A stretch of DNA of 64,000 nucleotides from a virus (lineage: Duplodnaviria > Caudoviricetes): positions 96,001 through 160,000 of IMG/VR virus record IMGVR_UViG_3300048672_000970. One strand, 5' to 3'. Of the stretch, positions 1,370-21,227 are shown piece after piece. The notes under the pieces were generated by a model. That model ran no database searches and was not told the origin of the DNA. It saw only the letters and a program-made list of their open reading frames with translations. Within the stretch, counting starts at the first letter, position 1. The number at the start of each line of letters is the position of its first letter. A program made the position numbers and the translations under genes.

Positions 1370-1774
1370 ATGATGAATCTCATTCAAACCCTGAAAATTG
1401 AACTGTTCACCCATCGACGTGCTAATAACGTCGTTGCCCGGAACCTGCTAACCACCCTGATTGGTGAAGCTGAAATGGTCGGCAAGAACGCCGGTAATCG
1501 AGAAACGACAGACGCAGAAGTAATCGCCATTGTTAAAAAGTTCATTGACAAGAATCGTGAATTTGCACAACTGGCGGGTGATTCTGACGTGCTGAAAGAA
1601 GAACTGGACATCCTGCAAAAGATTATGCCACCGCAACTGAGTTATAACGAATTGGTTGCCATCTTCCAAGAACTGAACGCGATGAATCTTGGCGAGGCGA
1701 TGAAATGGCTCAAACAAAATTATCCCGGCCGCTATGACGGCAAAGAGGCCAAGAAGGCTTTTGAGGCACAATGA
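1370..1774 (+). CDS. GatB/YqeY domain protein
   Basis: LLTTLIGE...TDAEVIAIVKKFI...EELDIL..MPPQLS pattern typical of the YqeY family. Confidence 0.75.
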   Translation: MMNLIQTLKIELFTHRRANNVVARNLLTTLIGEAEMVGKNAGNRETTDAEVIAIVKKFIDKNREFAQLAGDSDVLKEELDILQKIMPPQLSYNELVAIFQELNAMNLGEAMKWLKQNYPGRYDGKEAKKAFEAQ

Positions 1775-2367
1775 TGCGTTCAGTAGTCATCAACCTATTC
1801 GCCGGCCCTGGAGCTGGTAAATCAACCACTGCGGCTCGTTTGTTTTCATCCCTGAAGCTGCTGGGTAAGAATGCTGAACTGGTGCAGGAATTTGCCAAAG
1901 GGGCTGTGTGGGAAAAGCGAAGTCAAAAGCTGTTTGCTTGCCAACCGTATATCACAGGTAAACAAATTTGGCAACAGGCTCGGCTAGCCGATGAAGTGGA
2001 ATTCATGGTATCCGATTCGCCGATTCTGCTAGGGCTGGCTTATATTTCTGACGATGAACCCTCCGAGTATAAATCAGCTTTCCAGACGGTTTTGCTTCAC
2101 GAGTTCAATCGCCATACCAACATCAATTTCTTCATCAAGCGGGCCAAAGCTTATAACCCGAAAGGACGGAATCAAACTGAGCAGGAAGCGATTGAGAAGG
2201 ATAATGAAGTGAAAGCATTCCTGAATTCTCTTAACATTCCGTTCATTGAAATTTCGGGCGATGCTTCGGCGGACATGCAAATTATCGACCACCTTATTTT
2301 GAAGGGCGTTATCAATGAAGTAAATAATGGAAACACCCTCCATTATGAAACTTCGCCAAATTATTGA
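1771..2367 (+). CDS. NadR-like AAA/P-loop kinase
   Basis: INLFAGPGAGKST Walker A; SDSPILL; RNQTEQEA. Confidence 0.75.
   Translation: MMRSVVINLFAGPGAGKSTTAARLFSSLKLLGKNAELVQEFAKGAVWEKRSQKLFACQPYITGKQIWQQARLADEVEFMVSDSPILLGLAYISDDEPSEYKSAFQTVLLHEFNRHTNINFFIKRAKAYNPKGRNQTEQEAIEKDNEVKAFLNSLNIPFIEISGDASADMQIIDHLILKGVINEVNNGNTLHYETSPNY
2321..2326 (+). promoter_or_regulatory. late promoter motif TAAATA
   Basis: TAAATA 19 nt upstream of the MKLRQIIE start; another at 3162-3167 before the paralog. Confidence 0.5.
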
Positions 2368-4002: not shown

Positions 4003-4797
4003 ATGCGTACAATTATTGCTGGGTCGAGAACAGTTACTAACTATGGGGCGTTAACTCACGCCCTCCGATATGTTGATTGGGAAATCACTGAAGTGGTGTC
4101 AGGTACTGCAAATGGCGCGGACAAACTCGGCGAGCAATATGTGTATCAGCGGGATTTGATGTGTAAGAAATTTCCGGCCGATTGGGATAGGTATGGAAAA
4201 CGCGCGGGGATGATGAGAAATCAGAAGATGGCTGGATACGCAAACGCTTTAATCGCGCTCTGGGACATGAAATCAGCCGGGCCAGCTAACATGATAGGTC
4301 TGGCCGAAGAAATGGGCCTGAAGGTCGTTATCATGCCTTGCATCCTTGGATTTCAGGATGAATTCAGATGGTTGAGTAATTTTGCACCATGCGGTATCGA
4401 AATGGATGGCGACCGTTATCCATCAGTTGAACATGCCTATCAAGCTGCTAAAATGCCGGCAGGGTATCACCGTGAGCAAATTAAATTTCGGTCTGCAGGC
4501 GCTGCTAAAAAATATGTGCAGCAACCATCGGTGTGCCGATTACTTGACCCAGAATGGCATTCATATAAAATAGATATCATGCTCGATTGCTTGATGCAAA
4601 AATATACGGATGGTATCTATTATGAATTACTTCTAGCTACAGAAAATTATTACATCGAGGAAACTAACGCCTGGAAAGACACGTTCTGGGGAGTTTATAA
4701 CGGCCGAGGGAAAAATGTGTTGGGTGAAATGATCATGGCAATCCGGGATGAGCTTGCAGCCATGCAGTCGGATGTGCTACAATGCAGTCATTGCTAA
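4003..4797 (+). CDS. SLOG (YspA/DUF2493-like) - NADAR (YbiA-like) fusion protein
   Basis: N-half IIAGSR...VVSGTANGADKLGE...FPADW..YGKRAG..RNQKM; C-half WLSNF...YPSVEHAYQAAK...EETNAWKDTFWG..NGRGKNVLGEMIMAIR. Confidence 0.85.
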   Translation: MRTIIAGSRTVTNYGALTHALRYVDWEITEVVSGTANGADKLGEQYVYQRDLMCKKFPADWDRYGKRAGMMRNQKMAGYANALIALWDMKSAGPANMIGLAEEMGLKVVIMPCILGFQDEFRWLSNFAPCGIEMDGDRYPSVEHAYQAAKMPAGYHREQIKFRSAGAAKKYVQQPSVCRLLDPEWHSYKIDIMLDCLMQKYTDGIYYELLLATENYYIEETNAWKDTFWGVYNGRGKNVLGEMIMAIRDELAAMQSDVLQCSHC

Positions 4798-6211: not shown

Positions 6212-6447
6212 TGACTGCGTATAACGACATTACTGGTGATGCAATTCAATCGAAGCTGGCTACTGAAGCTTATGTTTCAAATCATGCATCCATTTTTACT
6301 CAGAAGCGTGAGCAATGGTTTTACCATTCGTCGAATGGTAAGGTTCCGTGTGAAGTGATTGGTCGAACTGGTGCTGATTTTATTATCAAGGTGGGCGAAG
6401 AATCTGTTACTGTGCCGTTCAGTCTTTTATCAAAGGAACGACTATGA
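6211..6447 (+). CDS. hypothetical protein
   Basis: GGAG RBS, coupled ORF. Confidence 0.7.
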   Translation: MTAYNDITGDAIQSKLATEAYVSNHASIFTQKREQWFYHSSNGKVPCEVIGRTGADFIIKVGEESVTVPFSLLSKERL

Positions 6448-7322
6448 TTCATACTCTAGAGCAAAATCATAACGGGCGAGATTTCGTGGTTGGAGATTTG
6501 CATGGCAATTATGACATGTTCATGGCTGGCCTTGATTTCTTAAAATTTGACCCGGCGAATGATCGGGTCATTTCGGTGGGTGATGTAATCGATCGTGGCC
6601 CGAAGTCGATGGAGTGCCTGCAATTGAATTTCCAGCCGTGGTTCCGCCAAATCAAAGGTAATCATGAGCATCTGATGATGCAAGCTGTCAAGCATGAAGG
6701 GCATCGTGATTTGTTCTTTTATAACGGCGGTGAATGGGCGATGGAATATCTGGGCGAGATTTATCGGAATGAAGTTTATCTAGATGAATCTGCCGACCTG
6801 CTCGCTTTAACGGCCATCCTAGAGTCTGCACCAGATGTTATTCGTATGAAGGTAAATGGCGAATGGAAATACATCGTTCATGCGGAATTGCCGTATTATC
6901 GACCAATCACCGCATATTCTGATACAGCCGAATATCAGACTAAATGGACGGATGAGTTGATGGCGTCAGAATGCATTAACGATATTTTGATGACTAAAGA
7001 TTCTTCTGGGTCATTACCGATTACTTGGGATAGAAACATTTGGCGGCAAATTGCTTGGACTGAACTAACACCCGTTCGTCTAAACGGTTTGCGTGCCGTT
7101 TTTGATGAATACATTGCCCCGCATATTGGTGAGCAGTTTGGCACGGTAATTTCTGGTCATACCATTCTACGAGAGCCTGTCAGATTACCTCATCATGTAA
7201 ATATCGACACTGGTGCATTTATGCCGTCTGGAAATCTAACGTTCCTTGAACTAGGAACAGACCGTGTTTTCAGTGTGGACAAACAGAACAATGTGCGAGA
7301 AACCGTTTTTAGGGAAGCATGA
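6444..7322 (+). CDS. Ser/Thr protein phosphatase (lambda NinI/PphA-like)
   Basis: VGDLHG, VGDVIDRGP, KGNHE, SGHT, NIDTGA. Confidence 0.9.
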   Translation: MIHTLEQNHNGRDFVVGDLHGNYDMFMAGLDFLKFDPANDRVISVGDVIDRGPKSMECLQLNFQPWFRQIKGNHEHLMMQAVKHEGHRDLFFYNGGEWAMEYLGEIYRNEVYLDESADLLALTAILESAPDVIRMKVNGEWKYIVHAELPYYRPITAYSDTAEYQTKWTDELMASECINDILMTKDSSGSLPITWDRNIWRQIAWTELTPVRLNGLRAVFDEYIAPHIGEQFGTVISGHTILREPVRLPHHVNIDTGAFMPSGNLTFLELGTDRVFSVDKQNNVRETVFREA

Positions 7323-10886: not shown

Positions 10887-10968
10887 GTAACAAAGTGTAA
10901 CAAGCATGGACTTTCTTCTTCCATGCTTTTACACTAACCAAGTGGTTTTTCAACGGAGAAAAATTGAA

Positions 10969-11553
10969 ATGCGAAATGTGCTCATGCTAACTGAAGATGG
11001 ATTCCCGGCCGGGTGGATTTCACCTGAACGAGCCATTTCATATCACGCCTCAGAAAAGGTGGCGTGGGAACTTGGTTCCCCAAAATTTCTGTTCCGGGGT
11101 GGAGAACAAAATGGCCGGCAATCTGTATTGAAAACTGCCGCTGTAATTGCAGTCAAGGGTGCACCTGGGCCATACAAACGATATGCCCCTACCACCATTT
11201 TTTCCAACAAGCAATTGTTCGCCAGAGATAACTGGACATGCTGCTATTGCAATGAACAATTCGCCACGTCTGAATTGACGCGGGATCATGTCATCCCAAC
11301 GTCGAGAGGTGGACTTGATACCTGGAAAAATGTGGTGTCGGCATGTCTTCCGTGTAATCGATTCAAGGGCAATCGACTGATTCAGCGAACCGGCATGCAA
11401 ATGCATTATCAACCGTATGCACCGAGCTATGTGGAAAATTTCGTTCTAAAGGGCCGACATCTGTTCAATGAACAGGCTGAATACCTGCGGACTTTTCTTC
11501 CAGAGCAAAGTGAAGTACACTACGTCCTCGACCAAATCACTGTTGGAGATTAA
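10969..11553 (+). CDS. HNH endonuclease
   Basis: RDNWTCCYC...TRDHVIPTSRGG.DTWKNVVSACLPCNRFKG; start moved to 10969 (GGAG RBS). Confidence 0.9.
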   Translation: MRNVLMLTEDGFPAGWISPERAISYHASEKVAWELGSPKFLFRGGEQNGRQSVLKTAAVIAVKGAPGPYKRYAPTTIFSNKQLFARDNWTCCYCNEQFATSELTRDHVIPTSRGGLDTWKNVVSACLPCNRFKGNRLIQRTGMQMHYQPYAPSYVENFVLKGRHLFNEQAEYLRTFLPEQSEVHYVLDQITVGD

Positions 11554-13775: not shown

Positions 13776-14300
13776 ATGCGGGAAATGATTTTAGCTATTG
13801 ATAGAAGTAACGCGATTGGCTATCATGATGGCAGATTGGCATGGCGAATCAAAGCGGACATGCAACATTTCAAACAGAACACGATGGGTAAAACAGTCGT
13901 CATGGGGCACAAGACATTTGTAAGTCTTTGTAACAAGACTGGACTTCCGGGTCGAACTAACGTAGTATTGAGTTCAAGAAATCGAGAAGAACTTCAGCTA
14001 GACCAGGCGGTTGAGTTGATTCATTCGATACGAGACATTCCTGAAAATTGCGTTATCATTGGCGGCGCTTCGTTATACGACCAAGTGCTAGATGCGAAAA
14101 TAATAGATGTAATAAATGTAACATTGATAGGAGAGTCATCGAATGCTGATGTAAAATTGACCCATCAACTAGGAACACTAGATGTGTTCCTCAAAAGTCA
14201 GGCAGAATCTGGCGTTCAATGGCAAGTGACCAATTCCGAATCAGTCAAGATGACTGATTCTCATCCAAGTTTTAAGTTTGTTAATCTTAGGCGTATTTGA
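13776..14300 (+). CDS. folA: dihydrofolate reductase
   Basis: AIG...LAWRIKADMQHFKQNT.GKTVVMGHKTF.S...LPGRTNVVLS; IIGGASLY. Confidence 0.9.
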   Translation: MREMILAIDRSNAIGYHDGRLAWRIKADMQHFKQNTMGKTVVMGHKTFVSLCNKTGLPGRTNVVLSSRNREELQLDQAVELIHSIRDIPENCVIIGGASLYDQVLDAKIIDVINVTLIGESSNADVKLTHQLGTLDVFLKSQAESGVQWQVTNSESVKMTDSHPSFKFVNLRRI

Positions 14301-14348
14301 AGCAGACGGGTACGTTCTATTTTTTATCTCTGCGTGAAAGGAAACCCA

Positions 14349-16304
14349 ATGAGTCTCCCCATGAGTATTACCGCCCTGGCCGCCCGCGTTGCGGAAAAGT
14401 ATGAAACCGTTGCGCTGTCTGTCGAGCAATGGTACGAACAAGCGGCTTCCGCGCCGGATATGTATGCTGGGGTTCATGCCCGGCTCCTGAAGGCAATTGG
14501 TGATCCAATCATCATTGACACGAAGGCAGACGCGCGGCTAAGTCGCATTTTCTCGGGTCGCAAGATCCGGGTTTATGAGCCGTTCAAGGATTTCTTCGGC
14601 ATCGAAGAAACGATTGATGAAATTATCAGCAAGCTGCGCGCTGGCGCGCAAAATCAAGAACCGGCTCGCCAAGTTCTTGACCTTGTTGGCCCGGTTGGTT
14701 CGGCAAAGTCTTCACTGGCTCGCCGTCTCGTCAGCCTAATTGAAAAGGAACCAATCTGGGTGGTAGCTACCGCGAAGGGTGACGTTAGCCCCGTTAATGA
14801 CAATCCGCTGGCGTTCCTGCGACTGCTAGGCGATGCTGAATCACTGTGCAAGGATTTTAACATTCCTGTCTCGGTCATGTCAAAGGTTTTCCCGTCGCCG
14901 TGGCTTGTTCAGCAATTCAAGGATGCTAAGTCTGACCTGACCAAGTTCCAAATTCGCAAGGTTTATCCGAGCGTGCTGGAGTCGATTGCAGTTGCTCGCA
15001 TCGAACCGGGTGATGAAAACAATCAGGATATTTCCACGATTGTTGGTAAGACTGACCTTCGCTCGCTGGAAAAGTATCCTCAAGAGCACCCGTATTCGTA
15101 CAGCTATTCGGGCGGTCTGTGCCGCGCCAACCGGGGCGTCGCTGAATTTGTCGAAATCTTCAAGGCACCGACGAAGGCTCTGCATCCCATTCTGACCGCA
15201 ACTCAGGAGTACATTTATAACGGCACTGAAAACATTGGCGCCCTTCCTTTCGATGGCCTGATTATCGCCCACCACAATTCGAGTGAATGGGACGAATTCC
15301 GCACCAATCCGAAGAATGAAGCATTCCTCGACCGACTGTGTGTTGTTCAAGTACCGTACACGCTTCGTCACGCTGAAGAAGCCGCCATCTACAAGAAGAT
15401 GATTGACCAGAGCACCACGCCAAATGTGCCGATTGCTCCGGGTACGATTGAAATGCTGGCAAAGTGGAGTGTTCTTTCTCGCCTGTCGGCTCCGGCTAAT
15501 TCGTCCATCATTGCCAAGCTGCATGTCTATAACGGCGAAAACGTCAAGGATCGTATGCCGACTGCCAAGCCGATTGGCGAATACCGAGACGCCGCCGGCC
15601 TGCATGAAGGTATGACGGGGATGTCTACCCGGTTCGCGTTCAAGGTGCTGGCAGATACGTTTGACCTTCGTCCGGAAGAAATGCAAGCGAATCCGGTTGA
15701 CCTGATGTTTGTCCTGCAAGAAGCCATTAAGAAGGATTCAACGCTGGCTGACGCTCGACGGGAAGAACTGCTCAACTTCATTGAAAGCCACCTGAAAGTT
15801 GAGTATTTCGAGCTGCTGGATAAGCAACTGCGCGAAGCGTACATGGAAAGTTTTGGCGCCTATGGGCAAAATATGTTCGACCGATACGTCAGTCTGGCCG
15901 CCGCGTGGATTGATGCTGAAGTCATTCGAGATCCTGAGACTCACATGACTCTCGACCGACAAGCCATTAACGGCAAGCTTGAAGAAATTGAAAGGCCAGC
16001 CGGTGTTATGAATGTTAGTGATTTCCGCCATAACATCGTGACCTATGTGCTCCGGTATCAGGCGCGTAATGCCGGTGCGTCACCGCGTTGGCAGGATTAT
16101 GAGAAGATCAAGACGGTCATTGAAAAGAAGCTGTTCACCGGCACGCAAAACATTCTGCCGGTCATTTCGTTCGGCACGAAGCAAGATTCTGAAATTGAAT
16201 CGAAGCATCATGCATTCGTTGACCGAATGATTGCAATGGGGTACACCAAGCACCAGATTGAAATTCTGGTTGCATGGTGGAGTGCCAATACAAAGGCAGC
16301 CTAA
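14349..16304 (+). CDS. prkA: PrkA/YeaG family AAA+ serine protein kinase
   Basis: LVGPVGSAKSS Walker A, YSYSGGLCRANRG..EFVEIFKAP, NEAFLDR, VPYTL, EGMTGMSTRFAFK; start moved to MSLPMS (14349). Confidence 0.93.
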   Translation: MSLPMSITALAARVAEKYETVALSVEQWYEQAASAPDMYAGVHARLLKAIGDPIIIDTKADARLSRIFSGRKIRVYEPFKDFFGIEETIDEIISKLRAGAQNQEPARQVLDLVGPVGSAKSSLARRLVSLIEKEPIWVVATAKGDVSPVNDNPLAFLRLLGDAESLCKDFNIPVSVMSKVFPSPWLVQQFKDAKSDLTKFQIRKVYPSVLESIAVARIEPGDENNQDISTIVGKTDLRSLEKYPQEHPYSYSYSGGLCRANRGVAEFVEIFKAPTKALHPILTATQEYIYNGTENIGALPFDGLIIAHHNSSEWDEFRTNPKNEAFLDRLCVVQVPYTLRHAEEAAIYKKMIDQSTTPNVPIAPGTIEMLAKWSVLSRLSAPANSSIIAKLHVYNGENVKDRMPTAKPIGEYRDAAGLHEGMTGMSTRFAFKVLADTFDLRPEEMQANPVDLMFVLQEAIKKDSTLADARREELLNFIESHLKVEYFELLDKQLREAYMESFGAYGQNMFDRYVSLAAAWIDAEVIRDPETHMTLDRQAINGKLEEIERPAGVMNVSDFRHNIVTYVLRYQARNAGASPRWQDYEKIKTVIEKKLFTGTQNILPVISFGTKQDSEIESKHHAFVDRMIAMGYTKHQIEILVAWWSANTKAA

Positions 16305-16307
16305 ATC

Positions 16308-16329
16308 AAAGGGGCTTCAGCCCCTTTTT
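16308..16329 (+). terminator. intrinsic terminator after prkA
   Basis: AAAGGGGC-TTCA-GCCCCTTTTT. Confidence 0.8.
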
Positions 16330-16345
16330 CTTTACAGGAAAAGTT

Positions 16346-17695
16346 ATGAATAAAATGTCTGCATATGTCATCGGAGCCGGCGTGATTGGCATTAACACCG
16401 CTCACCGACTCGCTGCCGATGGTTTTAACGTTACTGTTTTCGATTCGGAACATGATGTCGCCCTTGACACTTCTTATAGAAATGGCGGCCAGCTTTCTGT
16501 CGGCCATTGTGTTCCGTGGAGTAATCCATCTGCGCCTGCTAAAGTCCTTAAGTGGCTCTTTCAAAAAGATGCACCCCTCCTTTTCACGCCACGTTTTTCT
16601 GTTAAGCAACTGAAATGGATTGCCAATTTCTTCCGGCAATGTACTCGGTCTAATACCGATTTCAATACCGAATCCCTTATCAATCTTGGCATGCTGTCAC
16701 GAGATGCGATGCAAAATCTTCAAGCGGCATATCCTGAAGTTCTAGCTAATGAAAAATTTAGCAAACTGGACAACGGTATTATCCATTTCTATCGCAATGA
16801 AAAAGAATACAATGATGCGGTTAGGGATGTTATCTTCATGAATGGATGTGACCTTGAACGAAAACTGATTTCCAGAGAGAAAGTTTTTGAACTTGAGCCT
16901 AGTTTGCAAATGAATGAAAACATTATCGGCGGCACATATACTCCTGGTGATGCGTCGTGCGATGTCCATCAGTTCACAAAAGCTATTGCATCCATTACCG
17001 AGTTTCCAAATTCCGGTGGGTCAATCAGATATAAACTCCGGCATTACGTTCGTGAGCTGGTCTGTGATGAAGATAGTGGTCGAATTGTTTCTTTAACCGT
17101 GTATGACGAAGACAACGATGGTATCGTTCATTTTGCCGATAATCCGGATGTCGTTGTAGTTGCAGCGGCCAATTCGACATATGATTTGGTTAAGCCGTTA
17201 GGTATCAATCTGACCATGTATCCGGCCAAGGGGTATTCAGCTACTATCAAACTTCACCCTGATGAACTTGATAAAGCCCCTTACGTCAGTTTGACCGATG
17301 ATGAAAACAAACTAGTGTTTTCTCGTCTAGGCGATACTTTGCGAGTTGCGGGCACAGCCCATCTGACAGACGAGCCGACATGGATGTTGGACATGGTTCG
17401 GTGCAATTCTCTGATTGAAAAAACTAGAAGCATCTTTGACATTCGAGCCGATGAGTATGAATTCTGGTCGGGTGCTAGACCGCTAACACCTAGTAACAGA
17501 CCTTACATCTGTTCAACTGACTATGAAAATCTGTTTCTGAACACCGGGCATGGGTCACTTGGCCTTACAATGTCAGCAGGTTCAGCAGAATTACTTTCTT
17601 ACATTATTGCCAATAGCCTTTACGGCGTAAGTATGCTACAGTGTGATGAAATGGATGCTATGGTGAAAGCTTTCTCCCTGGACATCGCCCATTGA
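16346..17695 (+). CDS. dadA: D-amino acid dehydrogenase (FAD-dependent, DadA-like)
   Basis: VIGAGVIG FAD motif, TSYRNGGQLSV, PWSNPSAP.K.LKWL, YPAKGYS, RVAGTA, WSGARPLTP, NTGHGSLGLTMSAGS; start moved to 16346 (AGGA RBS). Confidence 0.9.
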   Translation: MNKMSAYVIGAGVIGINTAHRLAADGFNVTVFDSEHDVALDTSYRNGGQLSVGHCVPWSNPSAPAKVLKWLFQKDAPLLFTPRFSVKQLKWIANFFRQCTRSNTDFNTESLINLGMLSRDAMQNLQAAYPEVLANEKFSKLDNGIIHFYRNEKEYNDAVRDVIFMNGCDLERKLISREKVFELEPSLQMNENIIGGTYTPGDASCDVHQFTKAIASITEFPNSGGSIRYKLRHYVRELVCDEDSGRIVSLTVYDEDNDGIVHFADNPDVVVVAAANSTYDLVKPLGINLTMYPAKGYSATIKLHPDELDKAPYVSLTDDENKLVFSRLGDTLRVAGTAHLTDEPTWMLDMVRCNSLIEKTRSIFDIRADEYEFWSGARPLTPSNRPYICSTDYENLFLNTGHGSLGLTMSAGSAELLSYIIANSLYGVSMLQCDEMDAMVKAFSLDIAH

Positions 17696-17701
17696 ACCGA
17701 C

Positions 17702-17718
17702 GACCCGCTTCGCGGGTC
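17702..17718 (+). terminator. GC-rich hairpin between dadA and yeaH
   Basis: GACCCGC-TTC-GCGGGTC with only a weak U-tract. Confidence 0.45.
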
Positions 17719-17739
17719 TATTACACGAAAGGAATTGAA

Positions 17740-19056
17740 ATGAGTGTGCAACCTTCGCAACCTTCGCTAATTTTCATCGACCGAACCAAGACTGGTCGCG
17801 GTAGTTCGGCCGCCAATCGAGACAAGTATCTGAAGCGCATTAAGGCATCAGTAAAGGCTGCGCGAAATATTGCCCTCGGCGGGCTGACATCTGACACGAA
17901 GCAAACGGTCAATCCGATCACCGTCGCCCGGCAAAAGCTTAATGAACCGTCTTTCCATTATGACCATTCAACGGGCGTCATTACGAACGTTTTGATTGGC
18001 AACCAAATTTTTGAACGAGGTGATGAAATTCCCATGAAGAATTCGTCGGAAGGGCAAGGGGACGGTTCGGGAAATGGTGCTGGCAATGGTGGCAATGGCG
18101 AAGATGATTTCATCGTGCATGTCACGAAAGATGAATTTCTCAATATCTTCTTTGAAGATTGTGAGCTGCCGAACATGCAGCATAACTCAAAGAAGCAATT
18201 GAAGCTGCCAACCTTCCACAAAGCCGGGTATCGAACGTCCGGCAGTCCGGCCACTCTGTCTGTTATCAAGAGCTTCAAAAACTCTCTCGGACGCAGAATT
18301 GCCATCAAGGGGTCTTTCCAGTCGCGGATTGATGAACTGACCGAACAAGATAACGTCCTTGCCGAACTGATTCAAAGCCAGGATATTGAACTTGAACGAG
18401 CTTGTATCAAGGAAGAAATTACTGAACTGACTTCCCGAAAAGGCAAAGTCATGTTTTTTGACGACATGGATTTGCGGTATCGGAAAATGGAGCAAGAGAC
18501 GAAACGAACGGCTGATGCTATTTTCGTGATGATCATGGACGTTTCCGGGTCGATGGATCAGGAACGCAAAACGATGGCACGCAAGTTTTTCAGTCTGCAA
18601 TACGCTTTCCTGAAGCGACATTATCCTGACACTCAACTGGTCTTCATTGCTCATACTGAAACTGCTGAAGAAATGGATGAGGATGAATTTTTCTCCACTC
18701 GCATTTCTGGTGGCACGGTCGTTTCCCCTGCATACGAACTGGCTCTGGAAATCATTCAGGAACGATTTGATGCAAATGTTTCAAATATCTACTTGTCACA
18801 AGCGAGTGATGGTGATAACATGGAGTCTGACAATGCGAATCTAATTCCGGCTCTGGAACAGTCGGGACTTCTGAGCAAGATTCGGCACATGAGTTACATT
18901 CAAACGTGCCCGAAATCTCAATGGCATTATTCGCATGGGATGTGGGACGTACTGCAAAGTATCGCCCACACCCATCCGGAAAAGTTTGGTATGCAGCAAA
19001 TCACATCTGATGCAGAAGTGTTCGACGCATTCAAGGCAATTTATCACAAGCAATGA
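17740..19056 (+). CDS. yeaH: YeaH/YhbH (DUF444) vWA-domain protein
   Basis: IFIDR, EFLNIFFEDCELPN, SFKNSLGRRIA, DDMDLRY, MDVSGSM (MIDAS), SGGTVVSPA, QASDGDN; start moved to 17740. Confidence 0.92.
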   Translation: MSVQPSQPSLIFIDRTKTGRGSSAANRDKYLKRIKASVKAARNIALGGLTSDTKQTVNPITVARQKLNEPSFHYDHSTGVITNVLIGNQIFERGDEIPMKNSSEGQGDGSGNGAGNGGNGEDDFIVHVTKDEFLNIFFEDCELPNMQHNSKKQLKLPTFHKAGYRTSGSPATLSVIKSFKNSLGRRIAIKGSFQSRIDELTEQDNVLAELIQSQDIELERACIKEEITELTSRKGKVMFFDDMDLRYRKMEQETKRTADAIFVMIMDVSGSMDQERKTMARKFFSLQYAFLKRHYPDTQLVFIAHTETAEEMDEDEFFSTRISGGTVVSPAYELALEIIQERFDANVSNIYLSQASDGDNMESDNANLIPALEQSGLLSKIRHMSYIQTCPKSQWHYSHGMWDVLQSIAHTHPEKFGMQQITSDAEVFDAFKAIYHKQ

Positions 19057-20576
19057 AAGGATTGATGATGGAGCAAATTACTAGCAAGACCGTCTGGTCT
19101 GAACAGCTCATTCGAGCTGTTTGGGAAGAAATTAAAATCGTTGCAGAAGAAGAACTGGAAATTAGTTTTCCGGAGCATCTGTACCCATTTCAAATCGAGA
19201 TGATTACGGCTGATTCAATGATTAATGCCTATGCGAGTATTGGCATGCCCATCATGTACTCACACTGGAGTTTTGGTAAGGAATATATGCGCAATAAGCA
19301 CGCATATGACAACGGGCAGTCGGGGCTAGCTCTAGAGCTGATCACAAACGATTCCCCGTGTTCCACAATGCTGATGGAAGATAACGCCATGTACCAACAG
19401 GCGATGGTCATTGCGCATTGTGTCGGTCATAACAGCTTTTTCAAGTGCAATGATTATTTCGTCCAATGGACTAACGCCGGTTCCATCATTGATTACCTAG
19501 CGTTTGCCAAGCGGTACATCACGCAATGTGAACTGCGGTACGGTGAAGAAGAAGTTGAACGGGTACTTGATGCCGCGCATTCTCTAGCTCAACATGGTGT
19601 TGACAAGCATCCCCGCAAGTCGGCCCGAAAGATGACTGAATCTCAGTACCTGCAAATGCTTGTTGAAAAAGAAGAACGTGAGATGCAGGAATCGGACTAT
19701 ATCCTGAACCGGACGAAGCTGAAATCATCTGACAAGGATGAACCGAGTCCAGATTGGATGGATGAAACTTATGACCCGCTCGTCGGGGAAGAAAACCTGC
19801 TTTATTACATCATGAAGCGGGCGCCCAACATGCCGACCTGGAAACGTGAAATTCTGCGTATCGTCTGGAAGATTAACCAATATTTCTATATTCAGGGGCA
19901 GACGAAGATTAGCAATGAAGGGTGGGCCAGTTTCTGCCACTATTTCATCATGACTCGACTTGAAGAAAAGGGCGTTATTAGCAGTGATGCGTTCCTCGCT
20001 TTCCTGCGCGACCATTCGGGTGTTATTTTCCAACCGACGTTTGACAAGCAGTATTATTCCGGCGTGAATCCTTACGCAGTGGGTTTTGCCATCTATCAAG
20101 ACATCAAGCGGATTTGCGAAAATCCAACTAATGAAGATAAGAAATTTATGCCGCATCTCATTGGGCAGAAATGGCAAGATGCTGTTACGCGGGCCGCTTT
20201 TGAATATCGTGATGACAGTTTCATCATGCAATTCATGTCTCCGAAAGTGGCGCGGGATTTGGCGCTGTTTTCAGTAGAAATTAGTACCAAGCAAAATGTC
20301 CTTGGGCAGAAAAAGCAAACTGCTCTGGTAACGGACGTCGCCGATTTGGACGGGTTTCGCAACCTGCGCAATATGATGGCTGAGAATACTCAACGGATTG
20401 AGCACGTGCCTGAAATCAGGGTTAGTGGTGCTGATTTTGAGGGCGATCGAACGCTGGTGCTGCACTATCATCCGTACAAAAATCGAGAACTGGACGTTGA
20501 AGATACGCAAGCAGTCATTTCGTACATTGATGAACTGTGGGGATATCCGGTTGAACTTTACACGGTGACGGGTTAA
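19053..20576 (+). CDS. spoVR: SpoVR/YcgB family protein
   Basis: YASIGMPIMYSHWSFGK, LALELITN, AHCVGHNSFFK, YFYIQGQTKISNEGWASFCH, NPYAVGF, YRDDSFIMQFMSPK. Confidence 0.93.
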   Translation: MKGLMMEQITSKTVWSEQLIRAVWEEIKIVAEEELEISFPEHLYPFQIEMITADSMINAYASIGMPIMYSHWSFGKEYMRNKHAYDNGQSGLALELITNDSPCSTMLMEDNAMYQQAMVIAHCVGHNSFFKCNDYFVQWTNAGSIIDYLAFAKRYITQCELRYGEEEVERVLDAAHSLAQHGVDKHPRKSARKMTESQYLQMLVEKEEREMQESDYILNRTKLKSSDKDEPSPDWMDETYDPLVGEENLLYYIMKRAPNMPTWKREILRIVWKINQYFYIQGQTKISNEGWASFCHYFIMTRLEEKGVISSDAFLAFLRDHSGVIFQPTFDKQYYSGVNPYAVGFAIYQDIKRICENPTNEDKKFMPHLIGQKWQDAVTRAAFEYRDDSFIMQFMSPKVARDLALFSVEISTKQNVLGQKKQTALVTDVADLDGFRNLRNMMAENTQRIEHVPEIRVSGADFEGDRTLVLHYHPYKNRELDVEDTQAVISYIDELWGYPVELYTVTG

Positions 20577-20577
20577 A

Positions 20578-20808
20578 ATGAGCAAGCATGATCTGATGAA
20601 CGCCTGTTTGAGCATGATGGGCGTCTCTCATGTGTCAATGCTTGCACCCTGTTTTAATTTGGCGAGCGACTTTATCAAAACACGCGTAGATGCGGATAAT
20701 TTGGTCGAGGCGCTTTCCAAGATGCAGGAACGTGATCTACAATCTGTCTTCCAACTTCTCACTTTGAAAGGTAATCATGAACAAGTTTTTTCAATCCCTC
20801 AACTATAA
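20578..20808 (+). CDS. hypothetical protein
   Basis: Coupled ORF. Confidence 0.6.
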   Translation: MSKHDLMNACLSMMGVSHVSMLAPCFNLASDFIKTRVDADNLVEALSKMQERDLQSVFQLLTLKGNHEQVFSIPQL

Positions 20809-21160
20809 ACTGTTTGCGATGGCTGTCGCAGTTGGCACAATGATGTATTTCCTGCAAGATGCCGGGAAAGCCATTCAGCTTTGGGCCTGTGTATATTTTG
20901 CCGTAGCCTGCATGTTCATGATGGAACTGCTTATGTTTCAATACACCAATAACACCCTTGGCCTGAAAACCATGCTTGATAAACTTCCAAAGTTGAATTT
21001 CTGGGGAACCACTCGCACTACTGGTGATTTGGCATGGCTGGTCGTCTCGGCCGTTATTCTTCTTTCTCCAATTGGTACAGTTTTCGTCCTGTTCCCGATT
21101 GCCATCGTGTGTGCAGTAACCGGGCAAAGTGCAGAAGAACTTATCGGATTCATCAAGTGA
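20777..21160 (+). CDS. hypothetical multi-pass membrane protein
   Basis: Three to four hydrophobic segments; AAGG RBS. Confidence 0.65.
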   Translation: MNKFFQSLNYKLFAMAVAVGTMMYFLQDAGKAIQLWACVYFAVACMFMMELLMFQYTNNTLGLKTMLDKLPKLNFWGTTRTTGDLAWLVVSAVILLSPIGTVFVLFPIAIVCAVTGQSAEELIGFIK

Positions 21161-21190
21161 AAAAGCCGGGCATTGCCCGGCTTTTCTTTT
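21161..21190 (+). terminator. intrinsic terminator
   Basis: AAAAGCCGGGC-ATT-GCCCGGCTTTTCTTTT. Confidence 0.85.
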
Positions 21191-21227
21191 TCCTGATTGG
21201 AGTAAATAGATGAAACCAACATACATA

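Follow-up and report, generated by a model that had tools for sequence, protein, structure and literature searches.

The proteins YeaG, YeaH and YcgB are among the most conserved of the poorly understood stress systems of bacteria, and only recently has their module been tied to proteolysis during starvation in Escherichia coli. The module, named yeaG (spdA)-yeaH-ycgB or prkA-yhbH-spoVR, is known from E. coli, Shewanella, Pseudomonas and Bacillus subtilis. Starving E. coli cells need YeaG (SpdA) for a pervasive and largely non-specific breakdown of their cytoplasmic proteins; new synthesis draws amino acids and energy from this degradation, and the catabolism of amino acids fuels its extended phase (PMC13684143). 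The B. subtilis homologue PrkA binds and hydrolyses ATP by means of its Walker A lysine; its degradation of casein depends on ATP and on the Walker A motif, and no activity as a kinase was seen (PMC9512850). Moreover, cofitness links yeaG, yeaH and ycgB to one another in six bacteria, and their phenotypes concern the use of amino acids (10.1101/072470). Here we describe a form of this module that is carried by an uncultured giant phage from freshwater and includes a fourth gene. It lies in a stretch of 64,000 nucleotides (hereafter the window) corresponding to bases 96001-160000 of the 200,363-bp IMG/VR virus record IMGVR_UViG_3300048672_000970, for which CheckV gives a completeness of ~56%, implying a full genome of roughly 350 kb. 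The module is real, under selection and owned by the phage, and it belongs to a system that has already been seen in phages though it is unstudied there.

The cluster consists of four genes on the plus strand (14349-20576) with tight or overlapping joints: prkA/yeaG (14349-16304), encoding an AAA+ ATPase with an all-helical C-terminal domain; a dadA-like gene (16347-17695) for an amino-acid dehydrogenase of 449 residues dependent on flavin adenine dinucleotide (FAD); yeaH/DUF444 (17737-19056), encoding a von Willebrand factor A (vWA) protein with a complete metal-ion-dependent adhesion site (MIDAS); and spoVR/ycgB (19053-20576). The prkA frame is open from a GTG at 14334, its likely start being the ATG at 14349 after an AAGGAA ribosome-binding site. 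Similarly, the dadA-like frame is open from 16274 and likely starts with the ATG at 16347 after an AGGAAA site, while the yeaH frame is open from a TTG at 17692 and its ATG at 17737 agrees with the gene call in a related environmental contig (L167). The yeaH stop and the spoVR start overlap as ATGA. A preliminary description of the window had reported one co-oriented cluster of prkA, yeaH and spoVR. Its coordinates and the common orientation stand, but the cluster is not a plain triad, as the dadA-like gene between prkA and yeaH had been overlooked. The genes prkA, yeaH and spoVR form an operon, being co-oriented and co-inherited, with one gene inserted after prkA.

The same description had named the prkA gene as full-length with an intact Walker A motif, the yeaH gene as carrying the MIDAS motif DVSGS and the spoVR gene as full-length, and domain searches bear this out. 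PrkA matches PF08298 (3.6e-122, 408 bits) and PF06798 (3.9e-55, 188 bits) and reaches equivalog level with 805 bits against the NF011999 cut-off of 576; its Walker A motif reads GPVGSAKS. YeaH matches PF04285 at 1.1e-114 (384 bits over positions 1-418 of the 418 of the profile) and scores 377 bits with NF003707 (cut-off 396). SpoVR matches PF04293 at 2.3e-119 and PF24755 (SpoVR_C) at 2.4e-16, with 399 and 60 bits for the two Pfam domains, and scores 541 bits with NF008737 (cut-off 679). Thus, in comparison with the bacterial module, the locus keeps the three families in the usual bacterial order, the Walker A lysine, the MIDAS, the His/Glu set of SpoVR, and a PrkA that passes the NCBIfam equivalog cut-off. 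It differs in being encoded by a giant phage of lytic type, in the far greater divergence of all three proteins, in the equivalog scores of YeaH and SpoVR, which fall under the cut-offs, in the insertion of a dadA-like gene and a hairpin, and in a shortened His motif of SpoVR. New here are the dadA-bearing four-gene variant and its conservation, the hairpin after prkA, the divergence of the lineage, the altered His motif and a tested interface between YeaH and SpoVR.

Whether the triad occurs in related jumbo phages had been left undecided by the preliminary description, and a survey of phage genomes shows that it does so widely. In the Ralstonia jumbo phage RsoM2USA (MG752970) the three genes are gp30, gp29 and gp28, all annotated as 'hypothetical', and the triad is likewise contiguous in a 634-kb uncultured phage (LR745206). 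The 77-kb Thermus thermophage MN1 (LC754405, L184) has a permuted triad, yeaH-spoVR-prkA, which is completed by MN1_220, a DUF444/YeaH homologue (1.5e-58) annotated as 'hypothetical'; PrkA-like genes are found across the Thermus phages phiYS40, TMA, phiLo and Lalka. In IMG/VR, 157 contigs contain a relative, and nearly all of the 80 that were fetched have yeaH and spoVR directly downstream, none of them dadA. These phage triads (LR745206, the MN1/phiYS40 group and the IMG/VR contigs) have in common with the window that the three families are clustered; in the Thermus phages the order is permuted. A T4-type gp23 capsid gene is present in 18 of the 41 triad-bearing records searched in full (39 IMG/VR contigs, RsoM2USA and the window's own contig) and in none of 14 control bacteria; the gp23-bearing records include some of 243, 322, 344, 363 and 415 kb. 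At 45 loci there are more genes in common with the window's genome, e.g. those for PhoH, thymidylate synthase, HNH endonuclease, AAA_28 ATPase, RNA ligase and ClpP. A few 'viral' triad records are prophage flanks nested in host clades, such as Enterobacter phage LAU1, which has yeaG from base 1.

The closest described relative of the window's PrkA is that of RsoM2USA (53% identical), a phage that shares with the window the S-A variant of the Walker A motif, the derived residues at positions 252 and 254, neighbouring AAA_28, HNH and NadR/NUDIX-like genes and a comparable estimated genome size; RsoM2USA itself has a T4-type capsid gene. It differs in having no dadA-like gene and in the usual SpoVR motif AHAxxGHN. 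The paper on RsoM2USA places PrkA under signal transduction and SpoVR under replication/repair and does not mention YeaH (PMC8504454). In a marine virome study spoVR is the most abundant viral 'sporulation' gene, and a broad review of jumbo phages does not mention the triad genes. In our literature search we found no paper that handles the phage-borne triad as one unit, the genes being listed singly. With RsoM2USA in Ralstonia a culturable relative exists in which the role of the module in phages is directly testable.

The setting of the module is that of a phage genome. It is located at 110-116 kb of the 200-kb contig, between the gene for dihydrofolate reductase (DHFR) and tail genes, with phage genes tightly on both flanks. 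The window encodes tail fibre and tail tube proteins, a DnaB-type helicase, a NinI-like phosphatase, an HNH endonuclease, NUDIX and SLT proteins and DHFR, and genes for PhoH, thymidylate synthase, T4-type RNA ligase 1, ClpP and DNA ligase are found elsewhere on the contig. The genome has genes of T4 type for a tail fibre, RNA ligase 1, thymidylate synthase and PhoH; a gp23-type capsid gene (PF07068) was not found in the 200 kb, which represent ~56% of the genome according to CheckV. The composition of the module gives little sign of foreign origin: its tetranucleotide correlation with the rest of the contig is 0.856, within one standard deviation of the mean of other 6.2-kb windows (0.917, sd 0.062). 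Within the module, the 2 kb of prkA have the highest G+C content of the whole contig (0.516 versus a genome mean of 0.441).

The four-gene order is repeated in two independent environmental contigs. The first (L167, from an SRA run) has 79% nucleotide identity to the window, and its PrkA, DadA, YeaH and SpoVR are 86, 85, 73 and 83% identical at the amino-acid level; the second (L168, a JGI metagenome contig) has ~70% nucleotide identity, with 66% for DadA, 62% for the end of PrkA and 52% for the start of YeaH. In addition, three other studies of freshwater or aquatic metagenomes yielded contigs of 95-99% identity that extend over the module as well as its flanks, and some of these bridge the dadA/yeaH and yeaH/spoVR joints; all are of low depth, so that depth, transcript ends and uncovered parts are uninformative. 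A Megablast search with the 6.2-kb module gave no match among the GenBank phages. Between the window and L167 the ratio of non-synonymous to synonymous substitution rates (dN/dS) is 0.10 for prkA, 0.09 for dadA and 0.13 for yeaH, and none is given for spoVR, where dS is saturated. Since these ratios are about 0.1, the module genes are maintained by selection in this phage lineage.

A maximum-likelihood tree of PrkA (IQ-TREE, 37 representatives), which is unrooted, includes Pseudomonadota as the sampled bacteria and is not used to claim a donor or a direction of transfer, places the window's protein as sister to that of RsoM2USA (support 97/85). Two viral contigs complete a set of four with them (100/99): L030, from a record with a gp23 capsid gene, and L004, from one that IMG/VR classes as a provirus; the sampled Pseudomonadota are nested among phage lineages. 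The pairing of the window with RsoM2USA is also backed by derived states, namely GPVGSAKS and the changes at positions 252 and 254. A search of bacterial genomes (one genome per species, 185,579 species) returned at least 599 matching stretches, and among the best 80 of these the identity of bacterial PrkA to that of the window is at most 52%. Recent capture from a host is rejected on the basis of the PrkA tree and these identity values. The module is complete and phage-borne, as the preliminary description had held. It is not a chimera with host DNA: the gene order recurs in assemblies made independently, and PrkA falls among copies from phages. The lineage is strikingly fast-evolved: the mean identity of the window's PrkA, YeaH and SpoVR to the sampled copies is 48, 34 and 43%, whereas viral copies are 66-68, 45 and 54-55% identical to bacterial copies or to each other, which puts all three proteins 10-20 points below other phage copies. 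As a separate observation, four records (L027, L044, L060 and L073) of 44-49 kb, rated 100% complete, contain the triad without a gp23-type capsid gene and form a PrkA clade of their own; the triad thus lives also in an unrelated group of ~45-kb phages.

In the PrkA protein the invariant Walker A residues K125 and S126 are kept, and the S-A variant of the motif is common to RsoM2USA and 17-24 other homologues. The corresponding lysine of B. subtilis PrkA, K108, is needed for ATP binding and function (PMC9512850). Of the near-invariant positions of the family, 157 of 195 are retained, compared with 172-189 of ~192 in control sequences; the 38 changed positions include E110P, E130R, K133V, D252H, D254Y and D408M. 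The terminal branch of the window's PrkA measures 2.2 substitutions per site (median 0.29). An AlphaFold2 model with a predicted local distance difference test (pLDDT) score of 82 matches AAA+ folds only (clamp loader, CbbX, ClpC, FtsH and LonB/LonC), and the C-terminal ~260 residues (about 390-650) are helical. A beta-rich domain resembling that of a kinase or of the Lon peptidase is absent from the model, and hydrolysis may therefore take place at a site outside PrkA. A sequence search of the PDB yielded a single PrkA homologue (9xip, 9xiq and 9xir), for which we found no paper. A gene for a NinI-like Ser/Thr phosphatase is situated 7 kb upstream of prkA (6444-7322, plus strand). PrkA of B. 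subtilis is inhibited by Ser/Thr phosphorylation (PMC9512850), and its phosphosite is not kept in the window's PrkA, which has Val and Lys at the matching positions.

The MIDAS residues of YeaH (DVSGS, the threonine of GGT, and SDGD) fall in invariant columns of an alignment of 44 sequences that includes the window's own. SpoVR likewise keeps all invariant His, Glu, Asn and Arg columns, the NEG motif among them, and its His motif reads AHCVGHN, one residue short of the AHAxxGHN of 42 other aligned sequences. The short form AHC[VI]GHN, with a zincin-like x3 spacing, is restricted to the window and L167, RsoM2USA keeping the usual form. Modelling of complexes had been proposed at the outset and was run on YeaH and SpoVR with an alignment per protein. 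The interface score ipSAE was 0.77 (0.76, 0.77 and 0.78 in the individual runs), compared with 0.00 for the best of three controls; the mark set for this score is reached by 58 of 80 solved complexes and by 2 of 110 mismatched pairs. The runs have at least 84% of the contacts in common, and the partner pLDDT is at least 79. In the predicted interface a conserved N-terminal arm of YeaH reaches SpoVR at several places, its C-terminal domain among them, and the vWA domain takes no part. The predicted contacts comprise residues 8-34 and 66-100 of YeaH (counted from the ATG at 17737) and, among others, residues 472-491 of SpoVR. A sequence search of the PDB found no relative of either family, so that the prediction is not a recall of a solved complex; it supports the view that YeaH and SpoVR bind each other.

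The protein encoded between prkA and yeaH reaches the general DAO domain PF01266 (1.5e-44, 153 bits) and stays below the cut-offs of NF001933 (345 versus 383 bits) and of the equivalog NF009074 (287 versus 494 bits), and its dinucleotide-binding motif GAGVIG (GxGxxG) is intact. From these features it is best called DadA-like, a putative amino-acid dehydrogenase. Its closest relatives are the copies in the two environmental operons (85-86% in L167 and 66% in L168), and the best bacterial relatives, which are named DadA, are 42-44% identical. A scan of IMG/VR for close relatives returned none; the relatives came from the protein database. The next one (44%; L169:10001-11299) belongs to a different T4-like phage context on a 195-kb JGI contig, between topoisomerase II and dNMP kinase genes and near RNA ligase 1, with no prkA in the 21 kb seen, so that in phages DadA-like genes also occur apart from the triad. 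As no such gene was found in the 40 other triad-bearing phage records checked, the insertion is an innovation specific to this lineage. A link of this kind is known from bacteria. In E. coli K-12, ycgB (of the SpoVR family) divergently adjoins dadA-dadX, and in loci of some Enterobacterales (Brenneria and Serratia) dadA lies between yeaH and ycgB. Here, too, a SpoVR-family gene is found near that of a D-amino-acid dehydrogenase, but the bacterial dadA is divergent and separately regulated, whereas that of the window is co-directional inside the operon and encodes a protein ~30% identical to enterobacterial DadA. The dadA-bearing variant would tie the module straight to amino-acid catabolism, a connection that the enterobacterial ycgB-dadAX arrangement shows independently.

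A hairpin with a U-tract of the intrinsic terminator or attenuator type occupies positions 16308-16335 (plus strand), between the prkA stop and the dadA-like gene. Its stem has 8 pairs, of which 5 are G-C, and is followed by a run of T (hairpin scan); the RNA folds with -13.4 kcal/mol (z = -2.2). L167 and L168 have a U-tract hairpin at the equivalent site. Its occurrence in all three lineages, with a different stem sequence in L168, points to a conserved terminator or attenuator, or to a structure of the mRNA end. A single contig (run X2) matches only the 33-nucleotide hairpin (window positions 16310-16342) and departs from the window to either side of it, so that the hairpin sequence must have a further occurrence, in this genome or in another organism.

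What could such a module do for a phage? By analogy with the cellular proteins, we consider it about evenly probable that the four genes constitute a functional operon by which the phage turns cytoplasmic host protein into amino acids and energy in hosts of nutrient-poor freshwater, free of RpoS control. PrkA would be the ATP-driven AAA+ motor and YeaH a vWA/MIDAS adaptor, whose N-terminal arm would clamp SpoVR with the vWA domain left free, while SpoVR, in which a cluster of His and Glu is invariant, would be a subunit of zincin fold and a candidate for the hydrolytic component. The DadA-like flavoenzyme could oxidatively deaminate the released amino acids (alanine by way of a host racemase, or D-amino acids), a reaction that would yield keto acids, ammonium and respiratory electrons. 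The hairpin and U-tract after prkA probably set the output of PrkA above that of the three downstream genes. A machine of its own would free a phage in an oligotrophic lake from the RpoS control of the host, and the dehydrogenase would fit the fuelling step. We infer the proteolytic role from the work on E. coli and B. subtilis, and we likewise infer the role of SpoVR, the substrate of DadA and the benefit to the phage. The retention of the triad, under strong selection, by many phages that are not related argues that the activity of the triad is self-sufficient and useful in infection, and its use by phages may be likened to the recycling of host DNA for nucleotides.

The idea of the preliminary description that the phage rewires dormancy or starvation physiology fits, in its starvation part, the work on YeaG/SpdA and PrkA (PMC13684143, PMC9512850), but its framing in terms of sporulation and the phosphoproteomics suggested there are not supported, both resting on the older annotation as a kinase. 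PrkA of B. subtilis behaves as an ATP-dependent protease and not as a kinase (PMC9512850). A reading in terms of sporulation has also been used for viral spoVR (PMC8940887). It is rejected for the window for a reason of taxonomy. The nearest sampled cellular homologues are all Pseudomonadota, which do not form endospores.

A more specific form of the proteolytic proposal, which we advance tentatively and regard as doubtful, is that PrkA, YeaH and SpoVR form a three-part ATP-dependent metalloprotease of motor, adaptor arm holding SpoVR and zincin-fold cutter, which many phages would deploy to digest the host proteome and which would here be wired to an amino-acid dehydrogenase. It starts from the SpoVR model (pLDDT 78.6; predicted template modelling score 0.80). 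In a VIA search the best 50 matches of this model were all metallopeptidases of clan MA, non-peptidase relatives of that fold or DUF885 proteins, with ~170-214 aligned residues and Z from 12.5 to 6.0 (DUF885 11.6-12.5, M1 aminopeptidases ~10, and M32, M3, thermolysin and LasB 8-9.5), the upper value falling in the range of unrelated helical models. The invariant His-x4-His motif is located in a helix after a small beta-sheet, a zincin-like placement, and the core of SpoVR models as a zincin-like fold followed by the SpoVR_C domain. FtsH and Lon offer a parallel in the AAA+ motor fold (FtsH, LonB/LonC and ClpC), in the zincin-like fold of the partner SpoVR and in the genetic requirement of the cellular module for bulk proteolysis (PMC13684143). 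They differ in that here motor and candidate peptidase are separate and, according to the prediction, bridged by the vWA protein, and in that SpoVR is without the Glu of HExxH; membership among them is not claimed. The predicted interface of YeaH with SpoVR and the zincin-like fold provide concrete targets for mutation that would serve the whole family.

Several points weigh against the proteolytic interpretation, in its general as well as its specific form. The role is carried over by analogy from cellular proteins that are at most ~50% identical. Given the unusual divergence of the window's PrkA, its activity may have shifted. Besides the range of Z values just given, SpoVR lacks the catalytic Glu of HExxH, the residue after the first His being Ala (Cys in the window); the spacing of its His residues is usually x4 (x3 in the window), and the invariant NEG lies ~160 residues downstream. 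Foldseek returned no PDB match for SpoVR at E <= 0.001, an hhalign comparison of SpoVR with DUF885 was not significant (probability 0.3%, E = 0.19), and a relaxed Pfam scan of SpoVR and YeaH returned no peptidase family. The dehydrogenase raises difficulties of its own. DadA enzymes use D-amino acids, while proteolysis releases L-amino acids, so that a racemase step must be assumed for DadA to use the products; and as the 40 other triad-bearing phage records checked do without it, DadA is not essential to the use of the module in phages.

Among other explanations, the one that survives best, though we judge it unlikely, is that the module serves as a specific regulator of the state of the host, degrading or remodelling a few key regulators such as a stress sigma factor or hibernation factors, and thereby keeps a starved or dormant cell productive or aids long-term carriage. 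It would accord with the place of the cellular triad genes in RpoS- and NtrC-controlled stress regulons and with mutant phenotypes that differ by species, with the remark in the E. coli study that RpoS and YeaG are in turn shut off by the proteolysis that starvation induces (PMC13684143), and with the effect of PrkA on the developmental programme of B. subtilis (PMC9512850). However, YeaG-dependent degradation is pervasive and largely non-specific in E. coli (PMC13684143), no target is known, and an inserted catabolic enzyme suits nutrient recycling better than signalling.

The architecture of an AAA+ ATPase with a vWA/MIDAS protein also recalls the MoxR-vWA pairs such as RavA-ViaA and CbbQ-CbbO, in which the two genes likewise stand side by side, and the module could act as a MoxR-like chaperone or remodeller for large assemblies of the phage, i.e. 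the virion or the replication factory, with SpoVR as a non-catalytic scaffold. We consider this improbable. PrkA is not of the MoxR family (it has a sub-threshold match to AAA_5 only), the window has SpoVR as a third conserved partner, and the contact predicted here is that of YeaH with SpoVR, not of the AAA+ protein with the vWA protein. The missing HExxH glutamate of SpoVR and the proximity of tail genes, 2.4-4.4 kb downstream, would suit a chaperone, but these tail genes are on the opposite strand, and the module sits among genes of nucleotide and NAD metabolism (DHFR and NUDIX here, thymidylate synthase and PhoH in relatives) rather than in a structural block. The T4 late-promoter motif TATAAATA was not found near the operon, and the phage proteins keep residues that are conserved in cellular homologues, which assemble no virions.

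Still less probable is a peptidoglycan or envelope module, in which the DadA-like enzyme and SpoVR would act on D-amino acids derived from the cell wall. The substrates of DadA are indeed D-amino acids, spoVR of B. subtilis is named for a defect of the spore cortex (peptidoglycan), and a gene for an SLT transglycosylase is found 1.2 kb upstream; this gene is on the opposite strand, however, the four translations, judged by eye (no predictor was run), show no obvious signal peptide or membrane-spanning part, and YeaG-dependent loss in E. coli concerns overwhelmingly cytoplasmic proteins (PMC13684143). An assembly chimera with host DNA, or a recently captured cargo devoid of function, could appeal to the high G+C content of prkA and to the prophage flanks, such as LAU1, among the IMG/VR and GenBank 'phage' records with triad genes, but it is very improbable and largely refuted by the tight phage flanks, by nearest relatives that are phage copies, by the 95-99% identical contigs that span module and flanks, and by a gene order that other samples retain at 79% and ~70% nucleotide identity, dN/dS being close to 0.1.

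As to the remainder of the transcription unit, a DHFR gene (13776-14300, plus strand; PF00186 at 7.2e-29) ends 48 nucleotides before the prkA start; since the genes further upstream lie on the minus strand, the rightward unit of the cluster probably begins with it. Searches for sigma-70-like promoters gave 17 matches against a shuffled expectation of 14.2, which is not above chance, and no promoter is claimed; the same applies to terminator-like matches (12 versus 8.7). Downstream of spoVR, two small open reading frames of 76 and 127 amino acids (the latter hydrophobic) extend over 20578-21160 on the plus strand; they have no family match, and no counterpart was found in RsoM2USA. They are followed by a strong terminator-like hairpin (21161-21195, plus strand) with 11 pairs, 7 of them G-C, and a run of T, which probably closes the unit.

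Further genes around the module recur near other phage triads. An HNH endonuclease gene (10906-11553, plus strand) belongs to a family that is found within 10 kb of the triad here, in RsoM2USA and at 13 IMG/VR loci, the members being 29-41% identical (L002, L004, L005, L008, L028, L031, L038-L041, L053, L056, L071 and L078); it may be a homing element that helps the region to move between phages, or merely a multi-copy gene. A gene for an AAA_28-type ATPase (1771-2367, plus strand), 12 kb upstream of the module, is 38% identical to the one directly upstream of prkA in RsoM2USA (L002:7304-7939), and the two phages also have in common a gene for a NadR-like adenylyltransferase fused to NUDIX; these two genes suggest a conserved metabolic neighbourhood. 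Finally, a YAcAr (SLOG)-NADAR fusion gene is located at 4003-4797 (plus strand), which suggests a chemistry linked to NAD and ADP-ribose.

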